From: Escherichia phage vB_EcoM_ULIM9 | Sequence record: OQ850288 | Length of the DNA: 64,000 bases | Strand: one strand, 5' to 3' | Shown here: one piece after another, positions 4-54,674 of the stretch | Layout of the letters: every line of letters begins with the position of its first letter | How positions within the stretch are numbered: position 1 is the stretch's first letter | Position numbers and translations under genes: made by a program | Notes under the pieces: generated by a model | Databases searched by the model: none | What the model was told of the DNA's origin: nothing | Seen by the model: the letters and a program-made list of their open reading frames with translations, nothing else

Positions 4-92
4 TTTCAGAATCTCCAGTTTAGGACTTTATTTAGTGGGGAAGGTCATTCCCTCCCCGTTGATGTGTAATTTAATCTATCTAAAAACCAGTG
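4..92 (-). repeat. intergenic cassette copy F (GC hairpin plus RBS-proximal motif), upstream of a minus-strand gene starting at position 3
   Basis: cat at 1-3 followed by tttcagaatctccagtttagg, matching the cattttagaatctcctagtttaagg motif of the other cassettes; GGGGAAGG..CCCTCCCC imperfect hairpin. Confidence 0.45.
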
Positions 93-4155: not shown

Positions 4156-4462
4156 AGTTTACCTTCTCAGTTAGCTCATACAAGTCAACATGCTCAATAC
4201 TATCAATGTTGATACCAATCTTTTTGAAGCGTTCTATCACTTCGTTGTCAGTCATCCATATCAGACACCAATGATTGTGGATGGATTCTTCAAGAAGGTC
4301 AACACAATCTTTAAAAGTTTTTGTATCACTTCTTGTTCCGACTACTGCGATTGTCCCATACAACCACTTACCATTACCATAAGATACCTGTGCTACACCA
4401 ACTTCTTTATCTTTCTCGTAGTAAACGGCTACAAAGTCTCTTCCATTAATCTGCATAGTCAC
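4130..4462 (-). CDS. hypothetical protein
   Basis: 110-aa ORF. Confidence 0.4.
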   Translation of the reverse strand: MTMQINGRDFVAVYYEKDKEVGVAQVSYGNGKWLYGTIAVVGTRSDTKTFKDCVDLLEESIHNHWCLIWMTDNEVIERFKKIGINIDSIEHVDLYELTEKVNYESNTSQR

Positions 4463-4728
4463 TTCCTCGTTTTAAGAACTGCTAAGATTTCTTTAGAGTC
4501 TGGTAAGAACCATGTGTAGTGATTCTCTTTGATTTCTGGATGAGTGTCAACCTTTATTTTGCACTCTTTACCAACATGCTTAAGTTGTGCTGTGACACCT
4601 TGCATAAAGATATGGCACATCACGTTATCCATAATGGTTGGTGAAAAATCAACCCGCATATAAGTTTCTTTTGGTCGTGGTAGCAGTAAGTACCCTTCTA
4701 CATAGAAAGTATCTTCATTCTCTGTCAT
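4459..4728 (-). CDS. hypothetical protein
   Basis: 89-aa ORF; 4-nt overlap with upstream gene. Confidence 0.4.
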   Translation of the reverse strand: MTENEDTFYVEGYLLLPRPKETYMRVDFSPTIMDNVMCHIFMQGVTAQLKHVGKECKIKVDTHPEIKENHYTWFLPDSKEILAVLKTRK

Positions 4729-36136: not shown

Positions 36137-36670
36137 ATGGATTTAATTTTACAAAAACGTTTAAAGGAGCTGCTGCACTATGACCCCGAAACAGGGGTCT
36201 TTACTTGGCTTCGTAGAGAAGGTAAATCAAGAGCTGTTAGTGTTTTTAACAGTAATTATGCAGGAAAGGTGGCAGGTAATATCCAGACTGATTCAAGTGG
36301 TCATAAACAGATTAGTATCTATTTTGACAAGAAAGCACATAAAGCACACAGGCTCGCATGGCTTTACGTGTATGGCAAGATGCCAAAAGGTATCATTGAC
36401 CATATCAACGGAGACTCGCTTGACAACAGGATTGTAAACTTAAGGGAAGCAGATGATTTTCAAAGTGCTTGGAATAAAGGTAAACCAGTCACCAATAAAT
36501 CTGGGTACAAGGGTGTAAGTCTTAAGAAGAAGTCTGGTAAGTGGGTCGCACAGATAAGTTATAAAGGTAAGAAGATGTTTTTAGGTCACCATGACACACC
36601 AGAAGAAGCCCATAAAGCTTACTGTGAAGCTGCTATTAAACTCCACGGAGAGTTTGCAAAACTAAGTTGA
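36137..36670 (+). CDS. HNH homing endonuclease (paralog 3)
   Basis: YDPETGVFTWLRR, IIDHINGDSLDNR and LHGEFAKLS shared with paralogs. Confidence 0.7.
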   Translation: MDLILQKRLKELLHYDPETGVFTWLRREGKSRAVSVFNSNYAGKVAGNIQTDSSGHKQISIYFDKKAHKAHRLAWLYVYGKMPKGIIDHINGDSLDNRIVNLREADDFQSAWNKGKPVTNKSGYKGVSLKKKSGKWVAQISYKGKKMFLGHHDTPEEAHKAYCEAAIKLHGEFAKLS

Positions 36671-37362: not shown

Positions 37363-37550
37363 ACAAAGAAGACAAGCATAAAAATGCTGTACGAACTCCT
37401 GATGGGAAGATTCAATCATTCACCCTGACAGTTGGTGGAAAGCCATTCCGTTGCCACTGCGGAGCAAACTGCTTTCATAAACCAGATAAAAATGACTTAG
37501 AGCTTTACGCATGTAATGCTTGCAATACTTGGTATCATTCAGAGGAATAA
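37359..37550 (+). CDS. small zinc-finger protein
   Basis: 63 aa with CHCGANC and CNACN Cys pairs. Confidence 0.4.
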   Translation: MNKEDKHKNAVRTPDGKIQSFTLTVGGKPFRCHCGANCFHKPDKNDLELYACNACNTWYHSEE

Positions 37551-37551
37551 A

Positions 37552-38655
37552 ATGACAACACTGTACAAACAAAATAAAGATGGTTCCTTCAACGTCTGGT
37601 CATGTGTTGCTGTAGGTGATAAAGTTATTACAACCTATGGTAAAGAAAATGGCAAGATGATGTTTGAAGAGTATACAGCAGAACCGAAAAACATCGGTAA
37701 AAAGAATGAGCGTAACGCTGAACAGCAAGCTCTCTTTGAAGTTGCTGCTAAGTATAAAAAGCAAGTTGACCGCAAAGGTTATGCTTACACAAAAGAATCT
37801 GCACAGAATACTGAGAAGGTAGGTGTACAGCTTGCTCATGATGCTGCAAAGGTTAGTCATGCAAAGTATCTGAAGTTCCCTGCTGATACTCAACCAAAAC
37901 TTGATGGTGTTCGTTGTAGAATTTCAAGACACTTAAGTATTGGCAGTGTATTTACAGCATATTCTCGTGAGAACACTATTTATAAAATTCCTACTGAGCT
38001 AATACCTGACATTATGGCAATGTTAAGGCTCCATAAAGACGTTGATGAATTTGATGGTGAAATCTATGCTCATGGGTTGGACTTAGAAGATATTGTCTCC
38101 ATGATTAAAAATGAAGACAATCCTGACCGACACCTACTCAAGTTTTACTGGTATGATATCTGTGACAGTACTAAGACGTGGCCTGAGCGTAGAGATATTA
38201 TTGAGACTTCACCATTGAATGACTTTAGAGACGGCTGTAAAGTTGTTCCTGTTAAGTCTCGTCGTGTAAATTCTTGGGAAGAGTTTGATGAAGCTCATGA
38301 TAAGTGGGTTGAAGCTAAGTTTGAAGGTGCAATGTACCGTTCAATCTCTGAAGACTCCTTCTATGAGTGTTGTCACCGTTCATACTTCTTGATTAAACAC
38401 AAGAAGATGCACACTGAAGAGTTTAAAGTGACTGGTGTCAAGACCGATAAACGTGGTCATGGCAAGTTCGTTGTAGAGACGCTTCCTAACGTCTTTGTAG
38501 ATGTTTCATGGAAAACTACCCATGAGAAGAAGCAGTATCTTGCTGAGCATCCTGAAGAGTTTATCGGGAAACCTTTAACGGTACAGTTTCAGAAGATGAC
38601 TCGTAAGGGGTCTTTACAGTTCCCTGTTGGTCTCGTTATTCGAGACTACGAATAA
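37552..38655 (+). CDS. ATP-dependent DNA ligase
   Basis: adenylation motif I KLDGVRC (KxDGxR); start set to ATG 37552 with GAGGA RBS. Confidence 0.8.
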   Translation: MTTLYKQNKDGSFNVWSCVAVGDKVITTYGKENGKMMFEEYTAEPKNIGKKNERNAEQQALFEVAAKYKKQVDRKGYAYTKESAQNTEKVGVQLAHDAAKVSHAKYLKFPADTQPKLDGVRCRISRHLSIGSVFTAYSRENTIYKIPTELIPDIMAMLRLHKDVDEFDGEIYAHGLDLEDIVSMIKNEDNPDRHLLKFYWYDICDSTKTWPERRDIIETSPLNDFRDGCKVVPVKSRRVNSWEEFDEAHDKWVEAKFEGAMYRSISEDSFYECCHRSYFLIKHKKMHTEEFKVTGVKTDKRGHGKFVVETLPNVFVDVSWKTTHEKKQYLAEHPEEFIGKPLTVQFQKMTRKGSLQFPVGLVIRDYE

Positions 38656-38662
38656 AAAGTTG

Positions 38663-38690
38663 TTGACATAGAAAATTTGGTGAGTATACT
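38663..38690 (+). promoter_or_regulatory. sigma70-like promoter TTGACA-16-TATACT
   Basis: read directly; followed by inverted repeats and GGTTTGG repeats before the ORF at 38944. Confidence 0.55.
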
Positions 38691-38755
38691 GAGCAGCATA
38701 AACCAACGGGTACTCACCAGCATCACTTAAGAGTCTTTTAAAAGGGTTTTTAAGT

Positions 38756-38830
38756 GATGTTTGGTTCGGTATGGTCTAGTAGGCTCTGGTTTGGCAGGGT
38801 TTGGTGTGGTTTGGTATGGAAGGATGGCAG
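38756..38830. repeat. G/T-rich direct repeats (GGTTTGG repeated about five times)
   Basis: ggtttggttcggtatgg...ctctggtttggcagggtttggtgtggtttggtatgg in a non-coding leader. Confidence 0.5.
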
Positions 38831-38943
38831 TAGCCTTATAAAAAATCTGCCAAATAAGCTATAAAATCTGTTGACAAGTCAGGTGTTATAGCTTATTTTT
38901 ATACCCAATGTAATACAAAATTTAATATAACTTTGAGGTCATT

Positions 38944-39327
38944 ATGAAAAAGGTTTTATTAGCTGCTGCAATGGTTATGGCAATGAACTTACCAGTCAAT
39001 GCAACAGAACTTCCAAATGTGGACTTATCAGGTGTTCCAGAAGATACTTGCCAGATTGTAAAAGGTGTTGCGCTATCTAAAGGTGAGTTACTTAAACCAA
39101 TCTCTGAAGAGTCTTTAACAGAGATGACTGATAAGGTGACTGACTACCAGTATCGTGTTCTTGCAGAGTATTTCCTGCAATCTGCAAATATTAAAGAGAA
39201 ACACCATGATGATATTGATGTACAGGTTATGCTCAATCATCGTATCCAGTTTAAAGAAGATTTGATGCAAAAAGCTATGTATGGTGTTGAGTATTTCTTA
39301 GAAAACAGAAGCTGCACAGGTATTTGA
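38944..39327 (+). CDS. secreted/periplasmic hypothetical protein
   Basis: signal peptide MKKVLLAAAMVMAMNLPVNA. Confidence 0.45.
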   Translation: MKKVLLAAAMVMAMNLPVNATELPNVDLSGVPEDTCQIVKGVALSKGELLKPISEESLTEMTDKVTDYQYRVLAEYFLQSANIKEKHHDDIDVQVMLNHRIQFKEDLMQKAMYGVEYFLENRSCTGI

Positions 39328-39328
39328 T

Positions 39329-39541
39329 ATGGCTCTTAAAAAGTTACATCCCAGAAGCGGTTATGGTAAGATAATTGACGATACAGACGGCTTTACAGTC
39401 TTTACAGTTATCTGCCAAGATGATTCACAGATTGAAAAGGCTCTTGACGATTATCTTAACGATGAACGTGAAAAGGTTCGGGCTACAAACATAGATTCAT
39501 TGATTGACACTTCACGCAAACGGAAGAAGAAAGATGAATGA
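39329..39541 (+). CDS. hypothetical protein
   Basis: 70-aa ORF; stop overlaps the next start. Confidence 0.35.
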   Translation: MALKKLHPRSGYGKIIDDTDGFTVFTVICQDDSQIEKALDDYLNDEREKVRATNIDSLIDTSRKRKKKDE

Positions 39542-39833
39542 GGTTTTTGACCCTTATGCCCCACAAGATGATTGGGAGGCTGATAGAGAGGCTGAAATGG
39601 AGAGTTATATTTGTCCAATGGATGTAGACGAAATGAGAGACTTCGTTTCACATCGTTTTAAGAGAGAGATTAAATCCAGAGGTCTTTCTCAAGAACAAGT
39701 TGCTAAAATTTGTGGTATCTCTCAGGCTCGTGTATCCAACATAATCCACCTCACTGGGAATGTTTCCCTTGAGTATATGTTGGAAGTATGTGAAAAATTT
39801 GGTGTTAGTTTTAATTTAAGGTTGGCAGATTAA
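39534..39833 (+). CDS. putative HTH DNA-binding protein
   Basis: LSQEQVAKICGISQARVSNI resembles an XRE-type helix-turn-helix; start at ATG 39534. Confidence 0.4.
   Translation: MNEVFDPYAPQDDWEADREAEMESYICPMDVDEMRDFVSHRFKREIKSRGLSQEQVAKICGISQARVSNIIHLTGNVSLEYMLEVCEKFGVSFNLRLAD

Positions 39834-46679: not shown

Positions 46680-54674
<7,995 letters not shown>

Follow-up and report, generated by a model that had tools for sequence, protein, structure and literature searches.

A vrRNA gene of the VIPR type without vipr in a Felix O1-type phage and its predicted target in the vipr gene of related phages

Introduction

VIPR systems (for Viral Interference Programmable Repeat) were described in 2026 as an RNA-guided, DNA-silencing weapon of phages against satellites and prophages and were considered possibly ancestral to CRISPR effectors (10.64898/2026.04.26.720920; 10.64898/2026.04.26.720927). 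The effector Vipr is a minimal RAMP protein, which polymerises on guide RNAs (vrRNAs) with one protomer per GGY. A vrRNA of about 100 nt consists of 9-16 YNNGG repeats and an invariant tail, which forms a pseudoknot in the SUSP1 clade. Through its NN dinucleotides the RNA pairs with double-stranded DNA, every third target base being skipped, and binding of Vipr-vrRNA silences transcription on either strand and independently of a protospacer-adjacent motif (PAM). Guides of the SUSP1 clade are mostly aimed at satellite phage in E. coli genomes (18/20 published targets), and a match of 80% was used as cut-off for targets (10.64898/2026.04.26.720920; 10.64898/2026.04.26.720927). Here, a stretch of 64,000 nucleotides from Escherichia phage vB_EcoM_ULIM9 (record OQ850288), in the following called the window, was investigated. 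The region 38663-38901 is almost certainly a self-contained vrRNA gene of type II / SUSP1 clade, and the encoded guide is very probably directed at the vipr gene of related phages, a gene that the phage itself does not have.

Some vrRNAs of the Pseudomonas fulva clade target other VIPR systems (10.64898/2026.04.26.720920; 10.64898/2026.04.26.720927). Cas effectors are turned against their own genes, which they then silence, by crRNA-like RNAs (crlRNA/Cracr) and sgRNAs (vsgRNA) of viruses (10.1101/2024.10.29.618823; 10.64898/2026.06.01.729453). Racr, a class of RNA-based anti-CRISPRs (PMC10651486), and the mini-CRISPR arrays borne by viruses (Medvedeva et al. 2019, PMC6858448) are, like the element described here, effector-less guide or repeat modules in viral genomes; they serve inter-virus conflicts or act as effector decoys (PMC6858448; PMC10651486). 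The vrRNA class is already known. The configuration of an orphan vrRNA, encoded without vipr and directed against vipr, appears to be undescribed in the literature searched. Orphan vrRNAs, Felix O1 and anti-vipr guides in the SUSP1 clade are unmentioned in both VIPR preprints, where loci without vipr were not sampled because the clade was defined by Vipr BLAST. The tract also goes unmentioned in the Felix O1 genome paper, and no usable transcriptomes of Felixounavirus were found in the literature.

Identity of the element

The repeat tract of the window (Table 1) comprises 12 pentamers of the form GGY-NN (TGTTT GGTTC GGTAT GGTCT AGTAG GCTCT GGTTT GGCAG GGTTT GGTGT GGTTT GGTAT), so that their number is in the range of 9-16 known for vrRNAs. 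GGY is intact in 9/12 pentamers, and the guide code read from the NN positions is TT TC AT CT AG CT TT AG TT GT (TT AT). For the repeats a period of 10 or 5 was obtained with TRF. It is the only such tract on both strands of the 64-kb window, and no paralogues of the element were found elsewhere in the window. In the original prediction, about five copies of GGTTTGG had been noted here. The repeats are real, but the count holds only roughly: three exact copies (38788, 38798, 38808) and one GTTTGG (38759) are present. The suggestion that these GT-repeats bind a protein was borne out by VIPR systems, in which one Vipr protomer grips each GGY (10.64898/2026.04.26.720927).

Table 1 Features of the vrRNA locus in the window, and best target sites of single-unit orphan guide alleles (positions in vipr)
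Feature	Position	Strand	Remarks
ATP-dependent DNA ligase gene	37516..38655	+	in all relatives, anchors the VIPR locus on its 5' side
Promoter P1, TTGACA-16-TATACT	38663..38690	+	11/12 consensus match
Inverted repeat IR1, TGGTGAGTA ... TACTCACCA	38678..38719	+	arms 38678-38686 / 38711-38719, 100% complementary
Hairpin A (IR2), 5' flank of the repeat tract	38720..38760	+	19-bp stem, dG -18.2 kcal/mol, z -6.6
vrRNA repeat tract, 12 pentamers GGY-NN	38758..38817	+	pentamer register, hypervariable NN
vrRNA 3' tail (GGAAGGAUGGCAGUAGCCUUAUAAAAAAUCUGCCA)	38818..38852	+	hairpin S1 and pseudoknot
Terminator-like hairpin	38852..38901	+	arms 38852-38870 / 38880-38898, then T-run
Promoter P2, TTGACA-17-TATTTT, for the downstream operon	38871..38899	+	10/12 consensus match
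Downstream ORF, 127 aa, phrog_4332	38944..39327	+	in all relatives, anchors the VIPR locus on its 3' side
Orphan allele EC6	vipr +39..64	minus	18/18
Orphan allele Felix O1 family (11 phages)	vipr +465/468		20-22/22
Orphan allele JH2	over vipr ATG	minus	19/20
Orphan allele L009	vipr +99		15-17/20, only just above decoys
Orphan allele window-type (8 phages)	vipr +361		18-20/24
Orphan allele JLBYU28			no target found

The tail contains hairpin S1, formed by UGGCAG (38825-38830) and CUGCCA (38847-38852), and a pseudoknot between AAGG (38820-38823) and the loop CCUU (38834-38837). Thus, the invariant 3' tail with hairpin and pseudoknot is present as well. The 27 unique tails fall into four classes, in which the hairpin and the pseudoknot stem are both kept by compensatory changes. 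These are AAGG/CCUU with UGGCAG/CUGCCA and GUAG/CUAC with AGUCUCA/UGAGACU, as well as GUGG/CCAC with UGGUAG/CUACCA and GUAG/CUAC with UAAUCGGA/UUCGAUUA.

For comparison, related loci (L001-L029) were taken from IMG/VR, anchored on the ligase gene. The tail of the window is 100% identical to the terminal-vrRNA tail of SUSP1, SUSP2 and L006. Compared with the terminal unit of SUSP1/SUSP2, the terminator and P2 are identical too, and hairpin A differs only at scattered positions (loop, first arm base). Our unit calls in SUSP1 (L016), with one vrRNA upstream and three downstream of vipr-vap, agree with the published small-RNA sequencing, by which the orthologous SUSP1 unit was detected. With its identical tail, and as the positional orthologue of an experimentally detected terminal vrRNA, the element can hardly be anything else than a vrRNA gene. 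The original prediction of a small RNA was therefore appropriate: it is a small-RNA gene with its own strong promoter, the identity being read from the sequence.

In general, the element shares with the type II vrRNAs of the SUSP1 clade the locus (ligase to phrog_4332), the promoter, hairpin A, the GGY-NN tract, the identical pseudoknotted tail, the terminator and a natural target by the one-nucleotide-skip code. In contrast to these, the genome of the window has neither vipr nor vap, a single unit is found instead of an array of 4-5, and the guide aims at vipr, whereas 18/20 of the published targets of the clade lie in satellite phage.

In L006 the unit is modular and consists of hairpin A, 10-20 pentamers with GGT every 5 nt and free spacers, and the conserved tail. 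The tracts of the relatives occur in 1 to 5 copies, all on the transcribed strand. Among the relatives G2 and Y3 are fixed and NN changes completely, and the flanks are nearly identical; flank conservation was taken from the alignment of relatives, per-position flank counts being unreliable where indels shift the register. Among the unique orphan units (18), the share of G is 73% at G1 and 96% at G2, and that of C/T is 99% at Y3. The corresponding values for 69 units of loci with vipr (vipr+) are 78, 92 and 96%. The composition of N4 and N5 is near uniform, and the last pentamer GGTAT is kept in nearly all units. A conserved scaffold with hypervariable variable positions is the signature of a guide. 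Absence of the repeats in close relatives, which had been named beforehand as a sign against the element, is thus the wrong way round as a test, because the scaffold is conserved and the variable positions are hypervariable.

IMG/VR was scanned for (GGTNN)5GGT, and the open reading frames (ORFs) of tract-bearing loci were clustered. Degenerate tracts of this kind turned up in numerous unrelated viral contigs, frequently arrayed in tandem. One protein family adjoins the tracts in 27/38 tract-bearing loci. Its Felix-type member (195 aa, phrog_4652, no Pfam) matches PDB 36pp 'SUSP1 Vipr protein' with E 2e-127. On this linkage to Vipr homologues several candidates were dropped, namely a cluster of T7-type primase sites, a G-quadruplex/R-loop origin, an anti-rut tract, a multi-Shine-Dalgarno sponge, tRNA 3'-end pairing and PeSL-like shuffling cassettes. 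The wrap around a TRAP-like ring protein, our first working model, was dropped for the same reason. In the trp leader of Bacillus, the (G/U)AG repeats bound by TRAP also consist of a fixed triplet in a 5-nt register, with one oligomer subunit per copy. They differ in motif, protein fold and function; no TRAP homologue is present, and the spacers here carry sequence information.

Rfam gave no hit at gathering score for the window and 11 related loci, and in 38600-39000 only chance-level hits (E >=1.8). No tRNA was predicted in the window by the tRNA/tmRNA search. A Trp-rich ORF of 36 aa at 38754-38864 (MMFGSVWSSRLWFGRVWCGLVWKDG...) was rejected as a gene; the 5-nt period breaks the frame, and the ORF is unconserved. 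It arises from the richness of the tract in TGG; in some GenBank records, 'hypothetical proteins' are annotated across this region.

Absence of vipr and vap

The flanking genes of described vrRNAs, vipr (RAMP) and vap, were not found, though the locus is orthologous (ligase to phrog_4332). By tblastn with 27 diverse Vipr homologues and Vap nothing was detected in the window (best E 0.03). The nearest complete genome, that of Salmonella phage ph2-2 (85,944 bp), runs collinear to the window with 92-95% identity and carries a single tract at the same place; it likewise gave no Vipr or Vap by tblastn. With a hidden Markov model (HMM) of 27 Vipr proteins, the six-frame translations of the window and ph2-2 gave E 2.9 or worse; the control L006 gave E 2e-57. 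Hence, the RNA cannot act alone, because the phage lacks vipr and vap.

In GenBank, 118 Felix-type records with vipr at >=90% identity were found, and about 109 records in which the intergenic region is contiguous (one place, >=80% covered), Felix O1 included. Among the latter, 21 were examined, and the locus was single-unit in all 21.

Target of the guide

Guides were decoded by the published one-nucleotide-skip rule, and the scores were compared with decoys of shuffled NN order. The satellite set used for this purpose comprised 14 loci: one E. coli satellite, found via a 92%-identical baseplate gene, and 13 further loci. As positive control, many guides of vipr+ loci matched satellites at 0.82-0.93 versus decoy maxima of about 0.75, by which the published targets are reproduced.

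The first ten NN of the window match TTaTCtATgCTaAGtCTgTTaAGaTTgGT in 20/20 positions. This site is located within the vipr coding sequence, on the coding strand, at offset +361..+389. None of 1000 decoys reached 20/20 in vipr, the decoy maximum being 18. Of the 20 vipr+ loci, 8 carry the site without mismatch and 9 others with a single one; L002, L023, L024 and L025 are among the loci with the site. Ordinary sequence homology cannot produce this match, because the guide has a period of 5 nt and the target one of 3 nt. Thus, a natural target of at least 80% exists under the one-nucleotide-skip rule.

No self-target was detected in the window (best 15/20), and on the 14 satellite loci the guide remained at decoy level (0.71). 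The exact pattern of ten NN (ATNMTNAGNCTNTTNAGNTTNGTNTTNAT) gave 5 hits in IMG/VR and 15 in metagenomes, none of them extending into the flanking NN. We take these as chance hits, because all lie in low-GC environmental contigs and the flanking NN are unmatched. We regard vipr as the target encoded by the window guide with high confidence.

Furthermore, the best match is in vipr for 5/6 single-unit orphan alleles (Felix O1 included), clearly above decoys for four of these, and the alleles are directed at different vipr sites (Table 1). The sixth allele belongs to Escherichia phage JLBYU28, whose tract, upstream of GGAAGGATGG, reads …GGTAC AGTAC GGCTA GGTTG GGTCT GGTAA GGTCA GGTAT GGTTT. For the unique guides of vipr+ loci, no match in vipr or vap above decoys was obtained (0/61). 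The match of guide L025:3406 upstream of vipr in L001 was discarded as a low-complexity artefact inside another GT-rich tract.

Possible function

The locus combines an effector-less genome with a guide at the effector's gene, as would be expected for guide-only anti-defence. The following mechanism may be proposed. The transcript from P1 would consist of hairpin A, 12 GGY-NN pentamers and the pseudoknotted tail, ending at the terminator-like hairpin. During co-infection with a vipr+ relative, abundant orphan vrRNA would compete for the rival's Vipr against the rival's own guides. The loaded filament would then be directed to the rival's own vipr gene, which is present in any Vipr donor and missing from the orphan phage. 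Repression of vipr/vap and an R-loop roadblock on rival-only sequence would be the consequences, and the orphan vrRNA would serve as an anti-VIPR or competition device.

For the whole statement, composed of vrRNA gene, vipr target and anti-VIPR mechanism, the balance is slightly favourable. The use of the orphan guide in trans today is conceivable and is put forward tentatively. With similar reserve it may be suggested that about half of the sequenced Felix O1-type phages, Felix O1 included, have dispensed with Vipr and kept one strongly expressed guide with vipr as its only target, by which the effector of a rival is hijacked to shut down or block that rival.

Signs of selection were sought in the orphan units and their targets. 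In orphan units GGY is as intact as in vipr+ units (Mann-Whitney p=0.10), and P1, hairpin A, tail and terminator are invariant among the relatives. The Felix O1 allele family shows 1 change at 22 NN positions versus 9 at 33 GGY positions, the substitutions being distributed as 5 at G1, 1 at G2, 3 at Y3 and 1 at N4/N5. In post hoc comparison, vipr codon position 1 was polymorphic in 8/38 orphan-paired versus 7/157 unpaired positions (p=0.002), and codon position 3 in 8/10 versus 67/185 (p=0.015). GGY integrity, NN conservation and polymorphism of the vipr target are weak hints of ongoing selection. If so, in the anti-VIPR reading the guide alleles at different vipr sites and the excess polymorphism of the targets would be the visible part of an arms race with vipr.

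Several points speak against this use of the guide. The tests on polymorphism and NN conservation are post hoc, based on small samples and uncorrected for linkage or phylogeny. The last two NN of the window guide (TT, AT) are unpaired, and the overall match of 20/24 (83%) is just above the published cut-off of 80%. In 3/12 pentamers GGY is broken (TGT, AGT, GCT), and replacement of GGY, in constructs that we read as all substituted, abolishes silencing (10.64898/2026.04.26.720920; 10.64898/2026.04.26.720927). A sister sub-allele (ph2-2, D1-2, NJ12, RPN213) differs by 2 NN changes and matches only 18-19/24, which looks like drift. The skipped base falls on codon position 1, versus the wobble position in most published targets. 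The single-unit allele of JLBYU28 (L196) has no above-decoy match in vipr, vap or satellites, and no guide of vipr+ loci has one in the window or the ph2-2 genome. Finally, repression via the rival's own Vipr is self-limiting, and the benefit to the phage without vipr is hypothetical.

The main rival of the anti-VIPR reading is a relic. In this view, an ancestral vipr+ phage would have gained a guide matching the vipr of its own genome, vipr-vap, once silenced and thereby dispensable, would have been deleted by recombination between hairpin A/tail modules, and the leftover vrRNA would be transcribed without function. Such modules are repeated on both sides of vipr-vap, which would support a deletion. 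Vipr-less loci with two units are known as well (L005, L013, L026, L027 and L029, at ~4200-4600). L005, L013 and L027 keep anti-satellite guides, those of L005 and L013 matching satellites at 0.83-0.88, and the guide of L027 is identical to that of the vipr+ loci L002/L007/L031. Hence, loss of the vipr-vap cassette happens, is recent and leaves guides behind. The weaker vipr match of the ph2-2 sub-allele and the several broken GGY, present in the window and above all in the allele of Felix O1, also fit a relic. Stern et al. reportedly associated CRISPR self-targeting with effector loss in 2010. In contrast, at least five independent events of self-targeting and deletion would be required, each with the same final architecture, and an anti-vipr guide was found in 0/20 sampled vipr+ genomes. 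Nor does decay show in the units: the orphan GGY integrity is no lower than in active loci, NN is conserved in the large Felix O1 allele family, the targeted vipr positions are overly polymorphic, and P1 and the tail are invariant. A relic is rather unlikely on this evidence.

Less probable still, and improbable on the whole, is a guide-only vrRNA which acts in trans with borrowed Vipr on another target, such as a satellite or prophage outside the databases searched, the vipr match being secondary. A guide-only lifestyle exists in the VIPR system, because GGY-NN tracts whose tail begins with GGGTG are present in the satellites L159 (1799-1858, minus strand) and L160 (4917-4981, minus strand), which have no vipr or vap. 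The satellite-matching guides kept by the two-unit orphans L005 and L013 point in the same direction. However, the window guide was at decoy level on the satellites, the pattern hits in IMG/VR and metagenomes were low-GC chance only, and the match to vipr, free of mismatches over 10 NN, is highly significant.

The anti-VIPR reading follows the same logic as Cracr/vsgRNA: a guide-only RNA of an effector-less virus competes for and reprograms the effector of an enemy. Different from the present case, host CRISPR-Cas effectors are reprogrammed there, mostly at promoters. Here it would be the effector of a rival phage, at a site within the coding sequence, and the VIPR case is a prediction. The mini-CRISPR arrays differ as they use host Cas proteins and target genes of rival viruses in general; Racrs hold no targeting information. 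If true, the orphan vrRNA would be the first counter-measure to VIPR and the phage-versus-phage counterpart of Cracr/vsgRNA. A layer of counter-defence would be added to VIPR, and the strategy would have arisen independently in phage-phage conflict. Furthermore, Felix O1, the classical Salmonella typing phage and biocontrol chassis, has a conserved intergenic region that was never annotated, and a likely function would be assigned to it. Cocktails in which vipr+ and vipr-less Felixounaviruses are mixed might suffer from mutual interference. The orphan anti-vipr configuration is directly testable.

Transcription unit and locus

The phage of the window is a Felix O1-type myovirus of the genus Felixounavirus. 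In 38500-39100 the identity is 96.7% to Salmonella phage ph2-2 and 92% to Felix O1. The element is located between the genes of an ATP-dependent DNA ligase and a protein of 127 aa with a signal-peptide-like N-terminus (Table 1). The start of the latter ORF at 38944, as given in the original prediction, was found to be correct.

The predicted promoter TTGACA-16-TATACT could be verified. P1 is the sole match of >=11/12 on the plus strand in the whole window, and its transcription start is predicted near 38697. It is unchanged across 13 vipr-less relatives and conserved upstream of vrRNA1/vipr in vipr+ loci, and is therefore the VIPR-locus promoter of the relatives.

Two inverted repeats had been noted behind the promoter, and both were recovered. 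The first, IR1, has perfect arms of 9 nt (TGGTGAGTA N24 TACTCACCA), folds with -15.3 kcal/mol (z -3.2) and is invariant across relatives. Because its 5' arm overlaps the -10 hexamer of P1, an operator is conceivable, as is a hairpin in transcripts reading through from the ligase gene. A gene of XRE type with helix-turn-helix (HTH) motif at 39504-39833 may encode a phage regulator for which IR1 could be the operator.

The second repeat is longer than had been noted and corresponds to the 19-bp hairpin A, which precedes every vrRNA unit in related loci. Between unit types its arms covary and the loop is conserved (CACTTAA/TTAAGTG versus CCTTTTTAAAAG/CTTTTAATGAGG, read in L006). In phage ASO1B it carries a terminator annotation by TransTermHP. 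Hairpin A is probably a processing or boundary element; little room is left for it in the mature vrRNA because of the published length of about 100 nt.

The terminator-like hairpin is an inverted repeat (I1) of 19 nt with 89% complementarity, folds with -17.8 kcal/mol (z -5.0), is invariant across relatives and is the probable end of the primary vrRNA transcript. P2, which is annotated as promoter in phages ASO1B and AYO145A, lies in its loop and 3' arm. P2 bounds the RNA gene and is no part of it.

According to the original prediction, the 250 nt in front of the ORF at 38944 form a single untranslated leader, possibly a riboregulator. The region is indeed highly structured (z -5.9 for the fold of the 210-nt transcript). 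Both proposals failed on the terminator-like hairpin and P2, the ORF's own promoter, which lie between the repeats and the ORF, so that the 250 nt are a separate transcription unit and no leader of the ORF. In relatives an insert of 0.1-1.7 kb splits the intergenic region, the central part of which is present 2-5 times per locus. This insert between P1 and P2, which includes two genes, leaves the ORF undisturbed. There is no Rfam family match either. A structured 5' leader or riboregulator is accordingly very improbable, and as far as can be seen, no regulation of the downstream ORF by the element is apparent.

T7 primase sites of the sequence NGGTC resemble some of the pentamers. A DNA-level element (protein-binding iteron array, primase hot spot, or G-quadruplex/R-loop replication origin), to which the G-rich, C-poor non-template strand with GG every 5 nt would also be suited, is practically negligible, as all of the 1 to 5 copies in relatives stand on the transcribed strand, unrelated phages show a tight linkage of the tract with Vipr homologues, and vrRNAs were experimentally shown as Vipr-bound RNAs (10.64898/2026.04.26.720920; 10.64898/2026.04.26.720927).

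Additional observations

In L006 (4111-4257), and at equivalent positions in about half of the loci, a very hydrophobic ORF of 48 aa (MFSTVILFILVVFVLSYVASKLL...) is inserted behind the ligase stop codon and in front of P1; the window lacks it. An ORF of 177 aa with HNH/AP2-like motifs is present at 36137-36670 of the window, between the DNA polymerase and the ligase gene cluster; it is annotated as 'HNH endonuclease motif protein' in ph2-2 and is probably a homing endonuclease.

At 51890-52447 (minus strand) of the window, about 560 bp of a baseplate gene are 92% identical to an E. coli chromosomal island (L154, 4007-17383). The island of about 13 kb was found in 474/5426 complete E. coli genomes, inserted inside a DUF72 (yecE-like) gene. 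It carries tape-measure, baseplate, HNH and serine-recombinase genes and is the satellite targeted by vipr+ relatives.

Tandem arrays of 4-13 degenerate GGTNN tracts were detected in L067 (2217-3406), L055 (4600-5047, minus strand), L053, L063, L076, L082, L127 and L135. These arrays, from unrelated IMG/VR contigs, adjoin distant Vipr homologues, differ in punctuation and have no flanking hairpins. Their units end with GGTAAGGAATGGTTTAATGAATTTAAT in L067 and GGTAAGGCTAATGG in L055, and they probably represent other VIPR types. A near-identical motif of 35 nt (GGTTAGGTTAGGTAAGGTTAGGTTAGGTAAGGATA) occurs in many viral contigs, mostly of about 40 kb (L036, L041, L052, L056, L078, L079, L095, L115, L122), and is not an obvious hypervariable guide.

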